DNA of 9,651 bases from a virus (lineage: Duplodnaviria; Heunggongvirae; Uroviricota; Caudoviricetes). Each line of letters opens with the position of its first letter. Position 1 is the first letter of the stretch. Below the pieces are notes generated by a model, which did not search any database, was not told where the DNA came from, and saw only the letters and a list, made by a program, of their open reading frames with translations. This document shows positions 1 to 9,651 of this stretch, piece after piece. A program made the translations under genes and the position numbers. The stretch lies in IMG/VR virus record IMGVR_UViG_2585427793_000010; one strand, written 5' to 3'.

Positions 1-1158
1 ATGCTCACCGTTAAGCAGATTGAAGCAGCAAAGCCGAAAGAAAAACCATACCGCCTTCTCGATGGTAATGGCCTGTACCTTTATGTCCCTGTGTCAGGGA
101 AAAAGGTATGGCAGCTTCGCTACAAGATTGACGGTAAGGAGAAAATCCTGACCGTCGGAAAATATCCGCTTATGACTTTGCAGGAGGCAAGGGATAAAGC
201 ATGGACTGCGAGGAAAGACATCTCAGTTGGCATCGATCCTGTAAAGGCGAAAAAGGCTTCGTCTAACAACAATTCCTTTAGTGCGATTTACAAGGAATGG
301 TACGAGCACAAGAAGCAAGTATGGTCAGTAGGGTATGCAACTGAACTTGCCAAAATGTTTGACGACGACATTTTACCTATCATTGGCGGCCTTGAAATTC
401 AGGATATTGAGCCGATGCAACTGCTGGAAGTAATCCGCAGGTTTGAAGATCGCGGTGCAATGGAACGAGCCAACAAAGCACGCAGAAGATGCGGCGAGGT
501 TTTCCGTTACGCTATTGTCACCGGAAGGGCTAAATATAACCCGGCACCTGACCTTGCTGACGCCATGAAGGGATACCGCAAGAAGAACTTCCCGTTTCTT
601 CCTGCAGACCAGATCCCGGCATTCAACAAAGCACTGGCAACATTTTCAGGAAGTATCGTATCGCTCATTGCGACCAAAGTTTTACGCTACACAGCCCTAA
701 GAACGAAAGAGCTTCGTTCCATGCTATGGAAGAACGTCGATTTTGAAAATAGGATTATCACCATCGACGCCAGTGTGATGAAAGGACGCAAAATTCATGT
801 GGTTCCTATGTCAGACCAGGTAGTTGAACTTCTCACTACGCTAAGCTCCATCACCAAACCAGTCTCAGAGTTTGTTTTTGCCGGGCGCAACGATAAGAAG
901 AAGCCAATCTGCGAGAACGCGGTACTGCTTGTGATCAAACAAATCGGCTATGAGGGTCTGGAAAGCGGTCACGGATTCAGGCATGAATTCAGCACGATTA
1001 TGAACGAGCACGAATGGCCTGCTGACGCTATTGAAGTGCAACTGGCACATGCAAACGGCGGATCTGTGCGTGGGATTTACAACCATGCTCAGTATCTCGA
1101 TAAACGCAGAGAAATGATGCAATGGTGGGCGGACTGGCTTGATGAGAAGGGGGAGTGA
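1..1158 (+). CDS. intS: Prophage integrase, P4-type tyrosine recombinase
   Basis: 385-aa ORF. N-terminal arm-binding-like region (MLTVKQIEAAKPKEKPYRLLDGNGLYLYV). C-terminal catalytic signature candidates: R in TALRTKELRS, HxxR in GHGFRHEF, and Y in GIYNHAQYLDKRRE. Confidence 0.95.
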   Translation: MLTVKQIEAAKPKEKPYRLLDGNGLYLYVPVSGKKVWQLRYKIDGKEKILTVGKYPLMTLQEARDKAWTARKDISVGIDPVKAKKASSNNNSFSAIYKEWYEHKKQVWSVGYATELAKMFDDDILPIIGGLEIQDIEPMQLLEVIRRFEDRGAMERANKARRRCGEVFRYAIVTGRAKYNPAPDLADAMKGYRKKNFPFLPADQIPAFNKALATFSGSIVSLIATKVLRYTALRTKELRSMLWKNVDFENRIITIDASVMKGRKIHVVPMSDQVVELLTTLSSITKPVSEFVFAGRNDKKKPICENAVLLVIKQIGYEGLESGHGFRHEFSTIMNEHEWPADAIEVQLAHANGGSVRGIYNHAQYLDKRREMMQWWADWLDEKGE

Positions 1159-1310
1159 GCGACCTTAACAACTATCGAATAGCACAAAGTCTTGCAATCC
1201 AGTGCAAAGCTTTGTGTGTATAAGTTTTGTCTCATCAACCACAGCAAGTATCGATCGATTAAGACTTGGATGATAGACTTCATTCCTTTGATTATTAGCT
1301 GATAGAAGAA
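1159..1310 (+). promoter_or_regulatory. Upstream regulatory region of the gtr operon; promoter not resolved
   Basis: 152-bp intergenic region. Contains inverted repeat TTGCA-N7-TGCAA (1192-1208), a TATAAG -10-like hexamer (1219-1224) and the 10-bp palindrome ATCGATCGAT (1250-1259) carrying the only GATC. No well-spaced -35/-10 pair found by eye. Confidence 0.3.
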
Positions 1311-1673
1311 ATGTTAAAGCTATTTGCAAAGTACACCTCTATTGGTGTGCTGAACACCCTTATACACTGGGTGGTTTTTGGTGTTTGTATCTATGTCGCG
1401 CATACAAACCAAGCTCTTGCAAACTTCGCAGGTTTCGTTGTGGCTGTGAGCTTTAGCTTCTTCGCGAATGCAAAATTCACATTCAAGGCATCGACTACAA
1501 CGATGCGCTACATGCTATATGTTGGGTTCATGGGGACACTGAGTGCTACTGTTGGATGGGCTGCTGATAGATGCGCACTTCCCCCGATGATAACTCTTGT
1601 CACCTTCTCCGCCATCAGCCTGGTGTGCGGTTTCGTCTATTCAAAGTTCATTGTCTTTAGGGATGCGAAATGA
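1311..1673 (+). CDS. gtrA: GtrA-family small membrane protein, bactoprenol-linked glucose flippase
   Basis: 120-aa hydrophobic ORF, first of a gtrA-gtrB-gtr(type) triad; its stop overlaps the next start (ATGA at 1670-1673). Synonym yfdG in K-12. Confidence 0.9.
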
Positions 1674-2590
1674 AGATATCTCTTGTAGTTCCTGTCTTCA
1701 ATGAAGAAGAAGCGATACCAATTTTTTATAAAACGGTACGTGAATTCGAAGAATTGAAGTCATATGAAGTGGAAATCGTTTTCATAAATGACGGCAGCAA
1801 AGACGCTACGGAGTCAATCATTAATGCTCTGGCTGTTTCAGATCCTCTAGTTGTTCCGCTGTCATTTACACGCAACTTTGGTAAAGAACCAGCATTGTTT
1901 GCAGGGTTAGACCATGCAACCGGGGATGCGATAATCCCAATTGATGTTGACCTGCAAGACCCGATTGAGGTTATTCCTCATCTTATTGAAAAATGGCAAG
2001 CAGGTGCTGATATGGTTCTTGCTAAAAGATCTGACCGCTCAACTGATGGACGCCTGAAGCGAAAAACGGCTGAGTGGTTCTATAAGCTCCACAATAAAAT
2101 AAGCAATCCTAAAATTGAAGAGAATGTTGGTGATTTCAGGCTGATGAGCCGTGATGTTGTCGAAAATATTAAACTTATGCCAGAACGAAACCTTTTCATG
2201 AAAGGTATTCTGAGCTGGGTAGGAGGAAAGACAGATATTGTTGAATACGTGCGAGCGGAAAGAATTGCTGGAGATACAAAATTTAATGGATGGAAACTTT
2301 GGAATTTAGCACTTGAGGGTATTACAAGCTTTTCCACATTCCCTCTTCGCATCTGGACATACATAGGGTTAGTGGTAGCCAGTGTAGCATTTATTTATGG
2401 GGCGTGGATGATTTTAGATACTATCATATTTGGAAATGCTGTTAGGGGATATCCTTCACTACTTGTTTCAATACTGTTTTTAGGTGGAATTCAGATGATT
2501 GGAATAGGAGTATTAGGTGAATATATTGGACGCACATACATTGAAACCAAAAAACGCCCGAAATACATCATCAAGAGAGTCAAAAAATGA
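1670..2590 (+). CDS. gtrB: Bactoprenol glucosyltransferase, GT2 family
   Basis: 306-aa ORF. N-terminal GT2 signature ([25 protein letters not shown] as DxD) and C-terminal hydrophobic segments. ATGA overlap with gtrA upstream and with the next gene at 2587-2590. Synonym yfdH. Confidence 0.93.
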
Positions 2591-3918
2591 ATAAAGCAAT
2601 AAAAGTATCATTGTATATATCTTTTGTTTTGATTATTTGCGCCTTATCTAAAAACATAATGATGTTAAATACATCTGATTTCGGAAGAGCCATTAAGCCA
2701 TTAATTGAAGACATACCAGCATTTACATATGACTTACCTTTATTGTATAAATTGAAAGGTCATATTGATTCAATTGATAGCTATGAGTATATAAGTTCAT
2801 ATAGTTATATTTTGTATACATACGTCCTGTTTATTAGCATTTTTACTGAATATCTTGATGCTAGGGTGTTATCGTTATTTCTAAAAGTAATATATATTTA
2901 TTCATTATATGCGATATTTACTTCATATATAAAAACAGAAAGGTATGTAACTTTATTTACATTCTTTATTTTAGCTTTTCTTATGTGTTCTTCATCAACA
3001 CTGTCAATGTTTGCATCATTCTATCAAGAGCAAATAGTTATAATTTTCCTTCCATTTTTGGTGTATTCATTAACATGCAAAAACAATAAATCTATGCTTT
3101 TGCTATTTTTTTCGTTGCTAATAATATCTACTGCTAAAAATCAATTTATATTAACCCCACTAATAGTGTATTCATATTATATTTTTTTTGATAGACACAA
3201 ACTAATTATTAAATCTGTAATATGCGTGGTGTGCTTGCTTGCGTCAATATTTGCAATATCTTATTCAAAAGGTGTTGTTGAATTAAATAAGTACCATGCA
3301 ACATACTTCGGTAGTTATCTTTATATGAAAAACAACGGGTATAAAATGCCATCGTATGTTGATGATAAGTGTGTTGGGTTAGATGCCTGGGGTAATAAAT
3401 TCGACATATCATTTGGCGCAACCCCAACAGAAGTTGGAACGGAATGTTTCGAATCTCATAAAGATGAAACGTTTTCGAATGCACTCTTTTTATTGGTTAG
3501 CAAACCAAGCACCATCTTCAAACTTCCATTTGATGATGGTGTGATGTCTCAGTATAAAGAAAATTATTTCCATGTATATAAAAAACTACACGTAATATAT
3601 GGAGAATCAAACATACTAACGACTATTACTAACATAAAAGACAATATATTTAAAAACATTAGATTTATATCATTGTTATTATTTTTTATTGCTTCTATTT
3701 TTATTAGAAATAATAAAATAAAGGCATCTTTATTTGTAGTATCTCTTTTTGGAATATCTCAATTTTATGTGTCATTTTTCGGGGAAGGATATAGAGATTT
3801 AAGCAAGCATTTATTTGGAATGTATTTTTCGTTCGACCTTTGCTTATACATAACAGTCGTTTTTTTAATTTATAAAATAATTCAAAGAAATCAAGACAAT
3901 AGCGATGTAAAGCACTAA
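2587..3918 (+). CDS. gtrS: Serotype-specific O-antigen glucosyltransferase, polytopic membrane protein
   Basis: 443-aa highly hydrophobic ORF in the third position of the gtr triad. Markedly AT-rich (about 28-30% GC by eye) compared with gtrA and gtrB, typical of horizontally acquired type-specific gtr genes. Synonym yfdI. Confidence 0.85.
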
Positions 3919-3926
3919 GTTTAAAT

Positions 3927-3948
3927 TGCGCGCCAATCATGGCGCGCA
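3927..3948. terminator. GC-rich hairpin between the convergent gtrS and tail-fibre-fragment ORFs; possible bidirectional terminator
   Basis: Perfect 8-bp stem TGCGCGCC / GGCGCGCA with 6-nt loop AATCAT, 9 nt after the gtrS stop and 5 nt beyond the stop of the minus-strand ORF ending at 3953. No strong U-tract on either side, hence low confidence. Confidence 0.3.
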
Positions 3949-3952
3949 CAAG

Positions 3953-4282
3953 CTATAATACCAACCTAATTTCTCCTCCTCTTAGAGTGACTATATCTCC
4001 TGATAGAATTGCGGTATTGACTATCAAATGCCCTGATTCGTTGTTTATTGTAATATCTCCTCTATCTGCAGACGATAACTTAAATGCATCATTGCCCACA
4101 ACAAACCCCCTCCAGAACCAAGTGCTGATATTATCATCAACAGTGATAGATACATATACTAACTGATTATCGTTATAAGTGATTCCTGTCTTATACTTAA
4201 CATAAGGACTTCCACTTTGATTCTCGATAGACACATAACATCCAGGGGTTATGTTTGTATGCGTCCCGCGACTATCGCCCCA
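3953..4282 (-). pseudogene. Tail-fibre-like C-terminal fragment, AT-rich and N-terminally truncated
   Basis: The minus-strand frame is open for about 109 codons (stop on the plus strand at 4283-4285) in about 35% GC DNA, where stop-free runs are improbable. Product is beta-rich and N/G/S/T-rich (…ITINNESGHLIVNTAILSGDIVTLRGGEIRLVL), as in fibre tip domains. GTG start at 4234 has no good RBS. Family assignment is inference. Confidence 0.3.
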
Positions 4283-4561
4283 TTAACGCCATACGATAAA
4301 TGGGATGGTGAGAAATGGGTGACGGATACCGAGGCACAGCATAGCGTCGCAGTAGATGCAGCAGAAGCACAGCGCCAGTCGCTGATTGATACTGCAATGG
4401 CTTCCATTAGTCTGATTCAACTGAAATTACAGGCTGGGCGGAAGCTGATGCAGGCAGAGACCTCCCGACTTAACACTGTGCTGGATTACATTGACGCGGT
4501 GACGGCAACAGATACCAGCACCGCGCCGGATGTCATCTGGCCTGAACTGCCGGAGGAGTAG
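4217..4561 (+). pseudogene. tfaS: Tail fibre assembly protein fragment, N-terminally truncated
   Basis: C-terminal two-thirds of a lambda-Tfa-like protein (…YDKWDGEKWVTDTEA…TDTSTAPDVIWPELPEE). ORF begins at TTG 4217 with an internal ATG at 4259; Tfa-like sequence starts only at about 4262, coinciding with the GC-content breakpoint. Confidence 0.7.
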
Positions 4562-4973
4562 GCCATTCAATATCTGGCGCACTGGAAGTATCGACCAGCT
4601 CCAGTGCGTCCAGATAATCCAGCCACAAATTATATTGCGCCAGTTCCTCACCTTTCAGACGACCAATAGCCGCTTTACCAGCCCATTGTTTACTGTTCAT
4701 ATAATCGTTGGCCTGATTAATCAATTGCTGCTTTTTCAGTTCGGCTGCAGCAATCTGTTCCTCATGTGTTGGTGGTGGAATTTCAGACCATGCAGGAAAA
4801 CCATTTTCTCCAGCGATACGGATTTTTCCTTTCGGCGGTAATCCGGAAAACTCAATATACACTTGCTCATCAACTTCAACAGCATCATCTGGCCATGAGC
4901 CAGCTTGCGTGTAATCCTCTTTCATCTCCAAGGGATAGAAAGAGTTTGTAGTCGCGGAATATATGTAATTCAT
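4533..4973 (-). CDS. yfdK: Tail fibre assembly protein (Tfa family), full length
   Basis: 146-aa ORF with Tfa-type C-terminus (…VDTSSAPDIEWPTPPAVQAR). GGAG RBS 6 nt upstream of the ATG at 4973. Its 3' end overlaps the tfaS 3' end tail-to-tail by 29 bp. Confidence 0.85.
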   Translation of the reverse strand: MNYIYSATTNSFYPLEMKEDYTQAGSWPDDAVEVDEQVYIEFSGLPPKGKIRIAGENGFPAWSEIPPPTHEEQIAAAELKKQQLINQANDYMNSKQWAGKAAIGRLKGEELAQYNLWLDYLDALELVDTSSAPDIEWPTPPAVQAR

Positions 4974-4999
4974 TTTTCACTCCATAAAGTTAAAAGAAA

Positions 5000-5641
5000 T
5001 TAATACCCTAATGCGAAAAATGAAGCACCGATACCGGGTACGCCTGCTCTGGAAATAAATTTCACCGGGTCCTGGTTATAACCGGCACAAGCTATATAGC
5101 CAACATTTGCACTGCCGGGAGTGTAATCCTGAGTCGCAAATACCCGCAGACATCTATTCGGAAATGCAATCGGAAAATAGGTTACTGTGTCCTGAGACGT
5201 CAGCGGAACATCAATTGGCCCCCATTGAATAATTAAACCGGATGGCAATTTTTGATATCCAGGAACTGAAGCAGAAAGCATAAAACTACCCATATCAGGT
5301 ATCTGATTCGCCCCTGTCCCTACATTTCTTTTAGCCGCTTCTCCCAAACCAAGGTTTTCGAGAGCCTTTTGCACCGTGCCGTCCAATTTGATATCGCCAA
5401 ACGGATTCTTGCGGCTTAACAGCAGCGCACGAAGCGCGGTAAGCAGCTGGTCATGCCGCCCCTTCTCCAGGCTGGCACCGGAGGCCTCCACAACGCTGCA
5501 AAGCTCCTCCTGCAACATGTCAAAGTAGTCATCATCCAGATCGGTGGCAGGCGTGCCGGTCTGGGGGTTACCACGGGTAAAACCGTTCTTACCCGCGCCG
5601 AACTTATCCTTCTGCGCGGTTTTCGTGTCTATACGATGCAT
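5000..5641 (-). CDS. yfdL: Tail fibre protein, short or rearranged
   Basis: 213-aa ORF immediately upstream of yfdK on the same strand (fibre then tfa order). The ATG at 5641 is preceded by GGAG with a 6-nt spacer, supporting the long form over the internal Met-42 start (172 aa). Fibre-like C-terminal region (…[19 protein letters not shown]…). Confidence 0.65.
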
Positions 5642-5644
5642 GGA

Positions 5645-5845
5645 TTACTCCGGATATTTAAAAATTACGTAGGTATGCGACGGGCAGAGTTTGTTAAGCA
5701 CACACTCGACAACGGTGTCACCCCAGATACGCAGTGCGGAATCACAGGGATCGCCACATGTCATCCAGGTGGTGTTGGCGGCGGCTGGCATGTTGACCTG
5801 CCAGTAATACCGCCATTCCGGCGCATTCACAGCGTCAGTAGGCAC
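5645..5845 (-). CDS. Hypothetical small protein upstream of and coupled to yfdL; possibly a gene fragment
   Basis: 66-codon ORF with GTG start. Its TAA stop lies 3 nt before the yfdL ATG, and the yfdL RBS (GGAG) sits in its last codons. No recognisable motifs. An in-frame stop lies immediately upstream, so it cannot be longer. Confidence 0.35.
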
Positions 5846-5847
5846 TC

Positions 5848-6144
5848 ATGTTAAAGCAGGTGTATGAAATGAAAGTCCAGATTTTAAACAATAACTGTGA
5901 AGTCGTTTGGTCATACGACATAGCCGCCCCTGTAGATCAGAGCGGCGATAGCTGGACCAATGGGAAACATCAGATTATGGCTGGAGTTGTGTTCTCTTTA
6001 CGCCGTGCTTTGGAACAGGCTGAAGTATTTCCATCAGACCCTGAATGGAAATGGCCTTTTTCTATTTGTCCAAATTCGGAGAGCACATTTCAGAAAATTG
6101 GTCAGAAAGTCGCACTCGAAGAGCATCAGCCAACTGTTTCCTGA
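5848..6144 (+). CDS. Hypothetical ORF; questionable
   Basis: 98 codons from ATG 5848 (alternative ATG at 5869 with AGGTG 9 nt upstream). No long minus-strand frame exists across 5846-6061. Its 3' end overlaps the convergent 81-codon ORF by 83 bp, so at most one of the pair is probably fully genuine. Confidence 0.2.
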   Translation: MLKQVYEMKVQILNNNCEVVWSYDIAAPVDQSGDSWTNGKHQIMAGVVFSLRRALEQAEVFPSDPEWKWPFSICPNSESTFQKIGQKVALEEHQPTVS

Positions 6145-6307
6145 TTTTTTCAGGTAACTCGTCGGCATCGCAGAAACAACAACGCTCGATCATGTTGAAA
6201 GCCGATTCGTAGAACTGTTTCTGCTGAGTGTCGCTGAGACAGGAAAAGAGCGACGTTACGATGATTTTATTAATTGCATTATCAAGTTCTTTTTCATCAA
6301 AAGTCAT
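6062..6307 (-). CDS. Hypothetical 81-aa protein with a Cys cluster, first gene of the leftward unit
   Basis: ATG at 6307 preceded by AAGGAA RBS (6-nt spacer) and an in-frame TAA four codons further upstream, so the ORF is complete. Product MTFDEKELDNAINK…ERCCFCDADELPEK…; no HTH recognisable. Transcribed divergently from the yfdP operon. Confidence 0.5.
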   Translation of the reverse strand: MTFDEKELDNAINKIIVTSLFSCLSDTQQKQFYESAFNMIERCCFCDADELPEKIRKQLADALRVRLSDQFSEMCSPNLDK

Positions 6308-6560
6308 TTGATTTTCCTTTTATGTATACGGGCTTAAAAGGATACCACCGAGCCTGAAGTGGTGAAAAGACAGGCACATAACAGCTAAGTATTTTCAACC
6401 AAAGAGAATCCTTAGCGTTGTGGTGAATGCGGCTCAGCGCACGCGGGTTAAGGTTGAGGCTGACAGTCGACCTTCTGTGGATACCCACCCGTCTGGTGTG
6501 CAACCTTCGCCAGGCACCGGGAGGCACCCGGCACCACAACTTTATGCTGTGTGTAGTCCT

Positions 6561-6607
6561 GGCGGTACCAGTTTGTGCCCTTGCTTCCGGCTGGTACCGT
6601 CCTTTTT
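6561..6607 (+). terminator. Terminator-like hairpin with T5 tract inside the GC-rich intergenic region
   Basis: Arms CGGTACCAG (6563-6571) and CTGGTACCG (6591-6599), extendable to 11 bp with one G-U pair, followed by TCC then TTTTT (6603-6607). The 19-nt loop lowers confidence. Confidence 0.25.
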
Positions 6608-6744
6608 ACAAAACAGAGAAGAGCATCACCGGACGACGGGCTCATAACCCAATCCATCCGGGCGGCTGCCACCGCAGGTGTTCTTCTCTGTTTTGTGGAG
6701 AAACTAATCGGCCTTGCAGCGTCGATATGATGAGGAGCAGCAAA

Positions 6745-7107
6745 ATGGCTAGCGAACGCAGTACTGATGTGCAGGCATTTATCGGGGAGCTGGACGGCGG
6801 CGTATTTGAAACCAAAATCGGCGCAGTTCTCAGTGAAGTCGCTTCCGGTGTGATGAACACGAAAACCAAAGGTAAGGTCTCACTCAACCTGGAAATCGAA
6901 CCATTTGATGAGAACCGTCTGAAAATCAAACACAAACTCTCATATGTTCGCCCGACTAACCGTGGGAAAATTTCCGAAGAAGACACCACCGAAACGCCGA
7001 TGTATGTCAATCGCGGTGGTCGCCTGACTATTCTGCAGGAAGACCAGGGACAATTACTGACTCTTGCCGGTGAGCCTGACGGAAAACTCCGCGCAGCAGG
7101 TCATTAA
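6745..7107 (+). CDS. yfdP: Conserved prophage protein of unknown function, first gene of the rightward operon
   Basis: 120-aa product from ATG 6745, preceded by GAGGAG (6732-6737) with a 7-nt spacer. The 106 in-frame codons upstream (from 6427) are Arg/Cys-rich low-complexity read-through of GC-rich DNA and are judged non-coding. Confidence 0.8.
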   Translation: MASERSTDVQAFIGELDGGVFETKIGAVLSEVASGVMNTKTKGKVSLNLEIEPFDENRLKIKHKLSYVRPTNRGKISEEDTTETPMYVNRGGRLTILQEDQGQLLTLAGEPDGKLRAAGH

Positions 7108-7172
7108 TATCATTCTTAATTAACTAATTATTTATCTCATCACTGAATATCTTAATATAGTGAGGACTTATT

Positions 7173-7997
7173 ATGTCTCAGAACTTAGACGCAACCGCAA
7201 TTAATCAAATCCATGCCCTTATTTCTGCTCAGGGTGTTAATGAAATTATCAGTAAGATTGGTGCCGATGCTGTGGCATTGCCTGAGAATTTCCGCATTCA
7301 TGATCTGGAAAAATTTAATTTAAATCGCTTCCGTTTCCGTGGTGCGCTTTCCACTGCCAGCATCGATGACTTTACCCGTTATTCTAAAGATCTTGCAGAT
7401 GAAGGCACCCGCTGCTTTATCGATGCTGATAATATGCGTGCCGTCAGTGTGCTTAACCTGGGTACTATTGATGAACCAGGTCACGCAGATAACACCGCCA
7501 CTCTCAAACTGAAAAAGACAGCACCGTTCTCTGCCCTGTTGTCTGTTAACGGCGAGCGTAACTCCCAGAAATCACTGGCAGAATGGATTGAAGACTGGGC
7601 CGACTACCTTGTGGGCTTTGATGCTAATGGTGACGCCATTCAGGCAACAAAAGCGGCTGCGGCAATCCGTAAAATCACGATTGAAGCAAACCAGACCGCT
7701 GATTTTGAAGATAATGACTTCAGCGGCAAACGCTCCCTGATGGAATCTGTCGAAGCGAAGACCAAAGACATTATGCCAGTGGCATTTGAATTTAAATGCG
7801 TTCCGTTTGAAGGTCTGAAAGAACGTCCGTTTAAATTACGCCTCAGCATTATCACTGGCGATCGTCCTGTACTGGTTCTGCGCATTATTCAGCTGGAAGC
7901 GGTGCAGGAAGATATGGCTAACGAATTTCGTGATCTGCTTGTTGAGAAATTCAAAGACAGCAAAGTAGAAACCTTTATTGGTACTTTCACCGCCTGA
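7173..7997 (+). CDS. yfdQ: Conserved prophage protein of unknown function; DUF2303-like by recollection
   Basis: 274-aa ORF with GAGGA RBS 6 nt upstream of the ATG. Acidic, soluble-looking protein with no catalytic motif recognisable by eye. Confidence 0.88.
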
Positions 7998-8009
7998 TTT
8001 CATTACTGC

Positions 8010-8031
8010 AAATGCCCCTGCGGGGGCATTT
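8010..8031 (+). terminator. Intrinsic terminator-like hairpin between yfdQ and yfdR
   Basis: AAATGCCCC-tgcg-GGGGCATTT: 9-bp stem with GC-rich core, 4-nt loop and A-tract/U-tract arms, followed by AU, 13 nt after the yfdQ stop. Short U-run, so probably partial or bidirectional. Confidence 0.45.
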
Positions 8032-8124
8032 ATGGAAACGTAATTAACTCAATAATCACCGGATGGTGAGGGCTTCCTTTTACCCAAACTCAGCGCGGTG
8101 CAGCGCATATACGTGGAGAACAAA

Positions 8125-8661
8125 ATGTCATTTATTAAAACTTTTTCCGGGAAGCATTTTTATTATGACAAGATAAATAAAGACGACATCGTGATTAACG
8201 ATATCGCGGTTTCCCTTTCAAATATCTGCCGCTTTGCCGGTCATCTTTCTCACTTCTACAGTGTCGCCCAACATGCGGTGCTTTGCAGCCAGCTGGTGCC
8301 GCAGGAATTTGCTTTTGAAGCATTAATGCATGATGCAACAGAAGCGTATTGCCAGGACATCCCCGCACCACTGAAACGCCTTCTTCCTGACTATAAACGG
8401 ATGGAAGAAAAAATAGATGCAGTAATCCGTGAGAAATACGGGTTACCTCCTGTTATGAGCACGCCAGTGAAATATGCCGATCTCATTATGCTGGCAACCG
8501 AACGCCGTGATCTCGGGCTTGATGATGGCTCTTTCTGGCCTGTACTGGAAGGCATCCCGGCAACAGAGATGTTCAACGTGATTCCACTGGCACCGGGTCA
8601 TGCCTACGGGATGTTTATGGAACGTTTTAACGATTTATCGGAGTTACGCAAATGCGCATGA
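8125..8661 (+). CDS. yfdR: HD-domain phosphohydrolase, YfbR-like 5'-deoxynucleotidase family
   Basis: 178-aa product from ATG 8125 (GGAG RBS, 6-nt spacer); the track ORF starts at an upstream GTG 8098. HD signature visible: H in SVAQHAV, HD in ALMHDATEAYCQDIP, downstream Asp in ADLIMLATERRDLG. Confidence 0.88.
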   Translation: MSFIKTFSGKHFYYDKINKDDIVINDIAVSLSNICRFAGHLSHFYSVAQHAVLCSQLVPQEFAFEALMHDATEAYCQDIPAPLKRLLPDYKRMEEKIDAVIREKYGLPPVMSTPVKYADLIMLATERRDLGLDDGSFWPVLEGIPATEMFNVIPLAPGHAYGMFMERFNDLSELRKCA

Positions 8662-9014
8662 ATGTTTTCGAAATGGAAGGGTTTCTTCGCGGGAAATGTG
8701 TACCGCGAGATCTGAAAGTGAACGAAACAAATGCTGAGTACCTGGTACGTAAATTCGACGCGCTTGAAGCTAAATGTGCGGCACTGGAAAACAAAATAAT
8801 ACCAGTGTCAGCTGAACTGCCACCAGCAAATGAAAGTGTTCTGTTATTTGATGCTAACGGAGAAGGCTGGCTGATTGGCTGGCGTTCTCTCTGGTACACC
8901 TGGGGACAAAAAGAAACCGGAGAATGGCAGTGGACATTTCAGGTTGGGGACCTTGAAAACGTCAATATCACTCACTGGGCAGTAATGCCAAAAGCACCGG
9001 AGGCTGGAGCATAA
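8652..9014 (+). CDS. yfdS: Conserved prophage protein of unknown function, Trp-rich C-terminus
   Basis: 120-aa ORF. Start overlaps the yfdR stop (ATG 8652, alternative ATG 8658 forming ATGA), with GGAG at 8640-8643, indicating translational coupling. Confidence 0.85.
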   Translation: MRMNVFEMEGFLRGKCVPRDLKVNETNAEYLVRKFDALEAKCAALENKIIPVSAELPPANESVLLFDANGEGWLIGWRSLWYTWGQKETGEWQWTFQVGDLENVNITHWAVMPKAPEAGA

Positions 9015-9319
9015 TGACCACATTTACCAATAAAGAACTGATTAAAGAAATCAAAGAACGAATCAGCAGCCTAGAGGTTCGAGACGATATTGAGCGCCGT
9101 GCTTATGAAATCGCACTCGTATCTCTGGAAGTAGAGCCAGATGAACGCGAAGCCTATGAATTATTCATGGAAAAGCGTTTCGGTGACTTAGTAGATCGTC
9201 GGAGAGCAAAAAACGGCGATAACGAATACATGGCATGGGATATGACTCTCGGTTGGATCATCTGGCAGCAACGAGCTGGTATCCATTTTTCAACAATGTC
9301 ACAACAAGAGGTGAAATAA
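9014..9319 (+). CDS. yfdT: Conserved prophage protein of unknown function
   Basis: 101-aa ORF. TAATG stop-start overlap with yfdS and GGAG RBS with 5-nt spacer. Confidence 0.85.
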   Translation: MTTFTNKELIKEIKERISSLEVRDDIERRAYEIALVSLEVEPDEREAYELFMEKRFGDLVDRRRAKNGDNEYMAWDMTLGWIIWQQRAGIHFSTMSQQEVK

Positions 9320-9375
9320 TAGAGCCATACAGCCTCACACTCGATGAGGCCTGTCAGTTTCTTAAAATATCCTGA
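9235..9375 (+). pseudogene. ypdJ: Excisionase/AlpA-like HTH fragment, truncated
   Basis: 46-codon ORF overlapping the yfdT 3' end in another frame. Only the segment after the yfdT stop (9322-9372, EPYSLTLDEACQFLKIS) looks protein-like and resembles the start of an Xis/AlpA helix-turn-helix; it stops before the recognition helix. Confidence 0.45.
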
Positions 9376-9415
9376 TCTACCATCGCCGTCATAGAGCGTA
9401 TTTTTATTACCTGAT

Positions 9416-9431
9416 TTGCAGGTTCGATTCC
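9416..9431 (+). other. tRNA T-arm-like 16-mer (TTGCAGGTTCGATTCC), isolated fragment
   Basis: Contains the canonical T-loop motif GGTTCGATTCC but no complementary 3' T-stem, acceptor or anticodon arm nearby. Lies between the excisionase fragment and torI. From memory it matches the T-arm of tRNA-Arg (argW); unverified. Confidence 0.4.
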
Positions 9432-9450
9432 CTATTCGGAGATAGCACTC

Positions 9451-9651
9451 ATGCAACACGAACTACAGCCTGATTCACTGGTTGATTTGAAATTCATCAT
9501 GGCTGATACTGGCTTTGGTAAAACCTTCATCTATGACCGGATTAAGTCAGGCGACCTGCCAAAAGCCAAAGTTATCCACGGGCGAGCAAGATGGTTATAT
9601 CGTGACCATTGTGAATTCAAAAATAAGCTCTTAAGCCGCGCCAATGGGTAA
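9451..9651 (+). CDS. torI: Excisionase (recombination directionality factor) and TorR response-regulator inhibitor
   Basis: 66-aa ORF recognised as TorI (MQHELQPDSLVDLKFIMADTGFGKTFIYDRIKSGDLPKAKVIHGRARW…). GGAGA RBS 8 nt upstream. Winged-helix Xis-like pattern. Confidence 0.93.
   Translation: MQHELQPDSLVDLKFIMADTGFGKTFIYDRIKSGDLPKAKVIHGRARWLYRDHCEFKNKLLSRANG

Follow-up and report, generated by a model that had tools for sequence, protein, structure and literature searches.

The tailspike stump at the left joint of cryptic prophage CPS-53 and its apparent relation to the small toxic protein YodE

The stretch of DNA treated here, IMG/VR virus record IMGVR_UViG_2585427793_000010, is 9651 nucleotides (nt) long and constitutes the complete small cryptic prophage CPS-53/KplE1 at argW, from intS to torI; the whole stretch is called the window below. 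It raises the question why, to the right of gtrS, an AT-rich minus-strand open frame and the plus-strand tail-fibre-assembly gene tfaS are cut at the same point in opposite orientations, and from what the published small gene ryeG/yodE in this interval descends. We consider it highly probable that a hybrid prophage has its left recombination joint at this point, formed in a single event, where a P22-like arm with the stump of a tailspike gene meets a truncated tfaS, and that the stump is expressed as the RNA RyeG and the protein YodE. As a genome feature this is routine, since the tailspike stump and the truncated tfaS, joined at an overlap of four bases, are what ordinary prophage decay leaves behind, here by deletion and recombination within one of the best known cryptic prophages; what is new is limited to the origin of YodE/RyeG, the exact position of the microhomology joint and the intermediates present in natural isolates.

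The minus-strand frame runs from 4282 to 3956 with 109 sense codons, a stop codon at 3953–3955 and another stop codon at 4283–4285 directly upstream. An earlier note on this DNA, made without database searches, had counted about 109 codons, which a recount confirms, and had called the translation a tail-fibre fragment for which homologues should be sought. These are present. In tblastn searches of phage genomes the 109-amino acid (aa) translation is found at the extreme C-terminus of a tail fibre of Escherichia phage vB_EcoP_P64441 (E 2e-13) and at the C-terminal end of a 1010-aa protein of Vibrio phage 150E35-1 (E 1e-10), and tailspike-type proteins of 519–758 aa are matched with E values of 2e-19 to 6e-11, always at the extreme C-terminus. 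An HMMER search, exhaustive over 1.84 billion representative proteins, gave 19 matches only. The short ones reproduce the K-12 fragment almost exactly. The 13 longer than 100 aa (265–862 aa, E down to 2e-19) are nearly all aligned at their very end, with three weak matches (E 1e-6 to 2e-4) that concern internal stretches only. A word-indexed search of 5.8 billion sequences with the same query returned near-identical short fragments only and no full-length relatives. The remnant is 28–44% identical to the C-termini of ten full-length proteins, with the conserved ending GGEIRL. The fragment is thus no piece of a tail fibre and encodes the C-terminal domain of a tailspike of the P22/Sf6 type.

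Pfam scans of nine homologues found different N-termini, namely Head_binding of P22 (E 7.6e-66 in homologue P0004), Tail_spike_N of the CBA120 type and a tail-collar fibre domain, which is the pattern of a receptor-binding module that is swapped between virion anchors. Head_binding (PF09008) is absent from the remnant in the window and the beta-helix domain is deleted there too; without its head-binding domain the window holds a tailspike remnant and not a functional member. An AlphaFold2 model, made with ten homologous C-termini, shows an eight-stranded beta-sandwich with a pLDDT of 88.7. A sequence profile of the C-terminal domain found nothing in the PDB (best E 1.6, spurious) and searches of solved structures gave generic Ig-like similarity only, so the tailspike assignment rests on sequence and synteny and not on the fold.

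The synteny is seen in E. coli HKUOPY1 (giant panda faeces), the lone genome without the joint among the 365 complete genomes carrying this DNA; the joint is carried by 364 complete genomes. At argW, HKUOPY1 has intS-gtrA-gtrB-gtrS with 97.4% identity to window 1–4288, and its minus-strand frame runs on as an open tailspike reading frame (ORF) of 655 codons, beyond which are P22-type DNA-transfer, tail-needle and head-completion genes. A non-coding spacer in relatives would have spoken against the earlier note; in this related genome the sequence is part of an open frame. The remnant is collinear with the last 106 tailspike codons of HKUOPY1, from which it differs in 3 nt, and the first three codons of the 109 (W-G-D, 4274–4282) are tfaS DNA read backwards, so the true tailspike remnant has 106 codons and not 109. 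The tailspike 3' remnant, identified by homology and synteny, thus occupies 3953..4274 on the minus strand, the last 106 codons plus TAG out of ~640 codons, and the ~530 codons upstream are deleted.

In Pfam the 655-codon ORF matches Head_binding (E 5.7e-65), Beta_helix, and the YodE model at residues 608–655; the Beta_helix match is weak (1.7e-5) and is also found in homologues P0007 and P0011. The first 110 residues are near-identical to the Sf6 tailspike gp14 (7sg7) and also match P22 tailspike structures, and the N-terminal domain is matched to the Sf6 and P22 tailspike structures with E values of 2e-63 to 6e-44. In the window as in HKUOPY1, intS-gtrABS is followed by the tailspike on the opposite strand, and a P22-like contig in IMG/VR has ant and tailspike, then int on the opposite strand. 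The HKUOPY1 tailspike gene has a GC content of 37–44% throughout without a step at the equivalent position, indicating that the GC jump of the window was created by the joint. This jump, about 38 to about 53% in the earlier note, is 38.3% at 4201–4260 to 53.3% at 4261–4320 when recomputed, and the maximum-likelihood composition change point, searched in 3919–4561, is 4260.

The junction had been placed at about 4258; it exists, but homology locates it at 4271–4274, 13–16 nt further right. When the window is compared with both the HKUOPY1 tailspike and an intact relative of tfa, its identity to the tailspike extends through 4274 and its identity to intact tfa genes begins at 4271, with the crossover at ACTA (4271..4274), 4 bp common to both parents. 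In more than 2000 E. coli genomes the matching begins exactly at 4271, 4280 or 4283. ACTA opens a 21-nt patch (4271–4291) where the tailspike (ACTAGTCGCACCATTAACGGCA) and tfa (ACTA-TCGCCCCATTAACGCCA) agree in 19 of 22 alignment columns, with a score of 15, while 20000 pairs of positions drawn at random from both genes never scored above 13. The joint thus bears the signature of short-homology illegitimate recombination, a mechanism that we infer. The same comparison bears out the view in the earlier note that two unrelated genes cut at one point in opposite orientations mark a recombination or deletion breakpoint.

On the right side of the joint tfaS retains the 3' 96 codons and the stop of a tail-fibre-assembly gene (4271..4561, plus strand). 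It is matched by Pfam Caudo_TAP (PF02413) over profile positions 34–131 of 131 (E 7.2e-25), and RefSeq labels 4271–4561 a pseudogene 'missing N-terminus', both in agreement with the earlier observation of a Tfa-like sequence that lacks its N-terminus. About 100 N-terminal codons are missing. In a P2-like prophage, to whose tail-fibre cassette window 4271–5363 is 98.4% identical, 311 nt of the gene are located upstream of the joint.

The remainder of the window is divided between two kinds of phage. HKUOPY1 shares only 1–4288 and 9401–9651 (torI) with the window, and between these arms it has P22-like DNA with N, ral, kil, erf and abc. Window 4271–5840 is a tail-fibre cassette with tfaS', yfdK, a gp53-like fibre tip and a ymfQ fragment, and 5836–9375 is an early-left region that is shared with the thrW prophage of FORC_031, where it is found beside a pinE tail-fibre cassette. 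The int/att/xis module of KplE1 is that of HK620, Sf6, CUS-3 and Kapi1, with a P22-like recombination module (PMC2951348, PMC8787464). The AT-rich DNA, which had been regarded as the edge of an island that brought in gtrS, does consist of gtrS and the tailspike module, but it is the left arm of a P22-like prophage.

A natural intermediate is present in E. coli strain 1409 (broiler), which is 99.83% identical over window 1–5840, joint included, and past 5840 has a complete ymfQ, baseplate J, gp46, baseplate V and a fragment of a DNA-circularisation gene before it rejoins the window at 6957. K-12, the window and strain 1409 are apparently three different deletion derivatives of one hybrid, and as all three inherited one left joint, this joint should have formed once and be older than the later erosion. 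On the left of the joint would lie the arm of a P22/Sf6/HK620-type phage, with intS, gtrA, gtrB, gtrS and the convergent tailspike now reduced to the stump at 3953–4274; on the right the DNA of a different lambdoid phage, with a contractile tail of e14/Mu type, would begin inside the inverted tfaS of its Pin-type cassette. The crossover at ACTA would have removed the ~530 tailspike codons together with the P22-like virion genes, and this one event might then have been followed by different internal losses in the lineages of K-12, the window and strain 1409. CPS-53 would accordingly be a hybrid between a P22-like phage and one with an e14/Mu-type tail, for which the exact joint is mapped and intermediates occur in natural isolates.

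Some points weigh against this account. The 'parents', the HKUOPY1 tailspike and the tfa of the P2-like prophage, are present-day relatives and not the actual partners, so we infer from relatives only how far the microhomology extended at the time of the event. The HKUOPY1 prophage is itself degraded, and a further deletion joint has cost its tailspike ORF the first few codons. As to the direction of the event, e14-type DNA may have entered a P22-like prophage or an e14-type phage may have acquired P22-like arms.

The last point leads to the alternative that survives best, although we regard it as rather improbable: an e14/SfV-type serotype-converting prophage might have imported gtrS with a tailspike-3' cassette from a P22-like phage, by a left crossover in the conserved gtrA/gtrB and a right crossover at ACTA. 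It would agree with the uneven divergence between HKUOPY1 and the window, where intS has 43 mismatches (3.7%) and gtrA 26 (7.2%), while gtrB has 4, gtrS 12 and the tailspike stump 3, each at most 1%. This unevenness suggests a recent homologous exchange of the gtrB-gtrS-tailspike serotype module between P22-like prophages. Both arms of the window, intS at argW and torI (9401–9651), are however P22-like, of the KplE1/HK620/Sf6 type, and are shared with HKUOPY1, and the e14-type relative in FORC_031 has its own xis-int at thrW, so that the import would need extra exchanges.

The earlier account of the stump omitted a published gene. RefSeq has 'protein YodE' at 3953–4099 on 100% identical K-12 DNA, between gtrS and tfaS, and Pfam PF23504 (YodE) matches residues 62–109 of the 109-aa translation with an E value of 8.5e-36, which places yodE, encoding a toxic small protein of 48 aa, at 3953..4099 on the minus strand with a GTG start at 4099–4097. 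The yodE frame is the tailspike frame, and YodE therefore equals the last 48 tailspike residues, about the second half of the beta-sandwich. PF23504 also matches the ends of full-length tailspikes, above the cut-off in the HKUOPY1 ORF and P0004, and at or below the cut-off in P0007–P0009; the YodE family of Pfam is in reality the end of a tailspike C-terminal domain. By these sequence comparisons it is essentially shown that toxic YodE, with its Pfam family, represents the C-terminal 48 residues of an O-antigen-specific tailspike. A tailspike origin of YodE is stated neither in the searchable literature (yodE or CPS-53 with 'tailspike') nor in RefSeq.

RyeG is reported to have an extended -10 promoter and a Shine-Dalgarno (SD) sequence and to end in a rho-independent terminator (Hoer et al. 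2020, NAR, PMC7498339). The 199-nt transcript ryeG (IS118) should lie at ~3923–4121 on the minus strand, when its ends are deduced from the sequence and from the numbers in that paper (a toeprint at +37, which is 14 nt away from the start of ORF2, and 199 nt as the length). The transcription start is then at ~4121 and the 3' end just past a hairpin at 3948–3929. From the sequence and the published statement the extended -10, TGATAATAT, was located by hand at 4136–4128 and the SD, GGAGGGGG, at 4113–4106, both on the minus strand, the SD being formed by the tailspike codons W-R-G. The hairpin (3929..3948), read from the sequence as GCGCGCCA-ATCA-TGGCGCGC, is a perfect 8-bp GC hairpin within the 34 bp that separate the stop codons of gtrS and the tailspike, is followed by AAUUU on the minus strand, and probably serves as the RyeG terminator. 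A simple consensus scan for promoters and terminators did not flag the published promoter and terminator of RyeG, the hairpin being missed because its T-run is short, and an Rfam scan of the whole window gave no family above threshold, RyeG having no matching Rfam model.

Expression and toxicity are known from the literature. RyeG is found in association with 30S subunits, its inhibition of growth in E. coli is lost when ORF2 carries a stop codon, its overexpression also retards the growth of Salmonella (all PMC7498339), and YodE is translated and toxic (PMC7498339; Weaver et al. 2019 as cited there); a later preprint describes the RyeG product as a toxic peptide that cannot be cloned. In a DNA alignment the RyeG promoter, the SD and the GTG are present in HKUOPY1 and absent from tailspikes in IMG/VR whose receptor-binding part is 72–77% identical in protein, so the signals look fortuitous and not like a conserved internal start. 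HKUOPY1 has a C-for-T difference at 4126, slightly 5' of the deduced transcription start. The stump is transcribed from a promoter that, like the SD and the GTG, would lie by chance inside the tailspike frame, giving the 199-nt RyeG and from it the toxic 48-aa YodE. The same publication states that CPS-53 occurs only in K-12 (PMC7498339); HKUOPY1, strain 1409 and several draft genomes show that this does not hold.

It might be speculated that the stump has been kept as useful. As YodE and the 106-residue domain are fragments of the domain that closes tailspike trimers, either could act as a dominant-negative decoy poisoning the tailspike assembly of superinfecting phages whose tailspikes have a related C-terminus, or could be a growth-arrest toxin triggered by infection. 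We think this improbable; if true, it would be a defence function born of a pseudogene remnant, next to the GtrABS system for receptor masking. Less probable still is that YodE/RyeG is an independent small toxin family and a bona fide gene, to which the tailspike resemblance is secondary. The published transcription, translation and toxicity and the existence of the Pfam family would fit with it, and the stump is intact in three differently decayed prophage variants, although these are more than 99.8% identical overall and the retention may only reflect recent divergence. Against it, the homology continues in frame for 58 codons on the 5' side of the yodE start, up to the joint; the stand-alone short proteins in the exhaustive search are near-identical copies only and nearly all diverged homologues are C-termini of 265–862-aa proteins; no diverged stand-alone yodE-like genes were found outside tailspike contexts; and the expression signals are absent from the related IMG/VR tailspikes.

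The surroundings of tfaS bring in an invertase as another possible agent. The intact tail-fibre-assembly gene yfdK (4533..4973, minus strand; RefSeq) has a full-length Caudo_TAP match (positions 2–130, 1.9e-39) and lies tail-to-tail with tfaS, the U/U' arrangement of an invertible tail-fibre cassette in which tfaS is the inverted copy. The same arrangement occurs beside a recombinase in the P2-like prophage and beside pinE in FORC_031. A Pin/Gin-type invertase acting on a pseudo-site could therefore have made the joint instead of illegitimate recombination, but we find this very hard to believe. In the Mu G, P1 C and e14 P segments the crossover sites of the Gin/Pin type are located where the constant part of the fibre gene meets the variable part, while the breakpoint is ~100 codons inside the tfa coding sequence and the partner is tailspike DNA. 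A search for inverted repeats in 3800–6200 found no flanking crossover repeats, only one imperfect 18-nt pair between the 3' ends of both tfa genes and two other short pairs, and there is no invertase gene among the ORFs or the annotation of the window. Weakest of all, and next to impossible, is that the minus-strand frame arose by chance in AT-rich non-coding spacer, with the GC step as the boundary of an acquired gtrS island. In its favour, the region is short and AT-rich, an open frame at least that long appears in any of six frames in 54 of 5000 mononucleotide shuffles of 3919–4282 (~1%), and RefSeq annotates no gene over 4100–4270. It is ruled out by the significant matches to the C-terminal ends of full-length tailspike and tail-fibre proteins and by the collinear 655-codon frame of HKUOPY1, and the confident beta-sandwich model speaks against it as well.

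The joint has also created a predicted chimeric ORF of 100 codons (4259..4561, plus strand) with an ATG at 4259. The ATG and four codons (MRPA) come from antisense tailspike DNA and are in frame with TfaS', and in draft genomes it is listed by gene callers as a Caudo_TAP product of 100 aa.

Further observations concern the relatives. In HKUOPY1 the first ~18 codons of the 655-codon ORF are not tailspike-like, the true start having been lost at a joint with a truncated DNA-transfer gene, and for 6034–8001 of NZ_CP019961.1 RefSeq has only a 75-codon N-terminal tailspike pseudogene and a 48-aa 'hypothetical protein', where in fact one 655-codon frame is open across the interval. In strain 1409 the interval 37287–43061 of NZ_CP063369.1 is a less eroded sister of CPS-53 at argW; it also contains a baseplate assembly gene, and the DNA-circularisation gene fragment is fused to a truncated yfdP. 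Two further joints are visible in the window: at 5836–5840 the homology to strain 1409 ends (5840) and that to FORC_031 starts (5836), leading from the ymfQ fragment into early-left DNA, and at ~9375–9401 the FORC_031-type homology ends (9375) and the P22-like homology to HKUOPY1, with torI, starts (9401). In FORC_031 (NZ_CP013190.1, 3264–11194) two pinE genes and the anti-phage gene Avs2 (AVAST type 2) are located beside the tail-fibre cassette of the thrW prophage, unrelated to the joint.

The other genes of the window are intS (1–1158) at its start, gtrA (1311–1673) and gtrB (1670–2590), both transferred from the RefSeq annotation of identical K-12 DNA, gtrS (yfdI; 2587..3918, plus strand), a gp53-like tail-fibre C-terminal gene from 5000 on the minus strand (RefSeq annotation of identical K-12 DNA), and torI (9451–9651) at the right end. 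The gtrS gene, taken from the ORF list and from RefSeq on identical K-12 DNA, encodes a serotype-specific O-antigen glucosyltransferase, has a GC content of 27.6% and is convergent with the tailspike remnant. The role of GtrABS is O16 glucosylation (PMC11990801). Over 1–5579 and 6726–9385 the window has 3 mismatches to the CPS-53/KplE1 prophage of E. coli K-12, and 5580–6725 differs; the window is a natural sister variant of K-12 CPS-53 that is different from K-12 in 5580–6725 only. The counterpart of this segment in K-12 is yfdM'-yfdN-yfdO' (1461 bp), and in the window it contains the continuation of the tail-fibre gene and the ymfQ fragment (to ~5840), then two hypothetical genes that occur 5' of yfdP in other prophages. 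The entire window is collinear with the draft genomes GCA_918351575 (99.96%) and GCA_000700665 (99.99%), and its yfdC/argW-to-dsdC gene order is also present in draft GCA_003604495. The arrangement at 5300–7000 was found in none of the complete E. coli RefSeq genomes and is known from several draft genomes and metagenome contigs only.

The tailspike ancestry gives an explanation for the enigmatic YodE/RyeG, as an in-frame tailspike C-terminus with apparently fortuitous signals, and it reframes the questions of a YodE 'function' and of the Pfam YodE family. In addition, HKUOPY1 carries a near-complete tailspike that travelled with gtrS and is a candidate O16-specific receptor-binding protein.

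When compared with known systems, the left arm corresponds to the P22-like Lederbergvirus phages P22, Sf6, HK620, CUS-3 and Kapi1, where the tailspike is located beside the O-antigen-modification genes and int as in HKUOPY1, and the argW attachment site is common to Sf6, HK620 and KplE1. The HKUOPY1 tailspike has the head-binding domain of P22, followed by a right-handed beta-helix and a beta domain at the C-terminus, but its receptor-binding and C-terminal part is without a close solved structure, and the window keeps the last 106 of ~640 codons only. The right side shares with the cassettes of Mu (G segment), P1 (C segment), e14 (P segment) and P2-like phages the tail-to-tail tfaS/yfdK pair followed by the gp53-like fibre C-terminal gene; in contrast to the invertible cassettes of Mu, P1 and e14 it has no invertase, no second fibre tip (Sv') and no front half of tfaS, and the segment can therefore no longer invert. 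The tfaS of K-12 CPS-53, whose sequence over 1–5579 is the same as in the window, was already marked by RefSeq as missing its N-terminus, and the DNA to its left is not annotated as a tailspike stump. The published ryeG/yodE has the same DNA, strand and frame as window 3953–4099, and while it appears in the searchable papers as a prophage-encoded small gene of unknown origin, it is recognized here as the in-frame C-terminal 48 residues of a tailspike.

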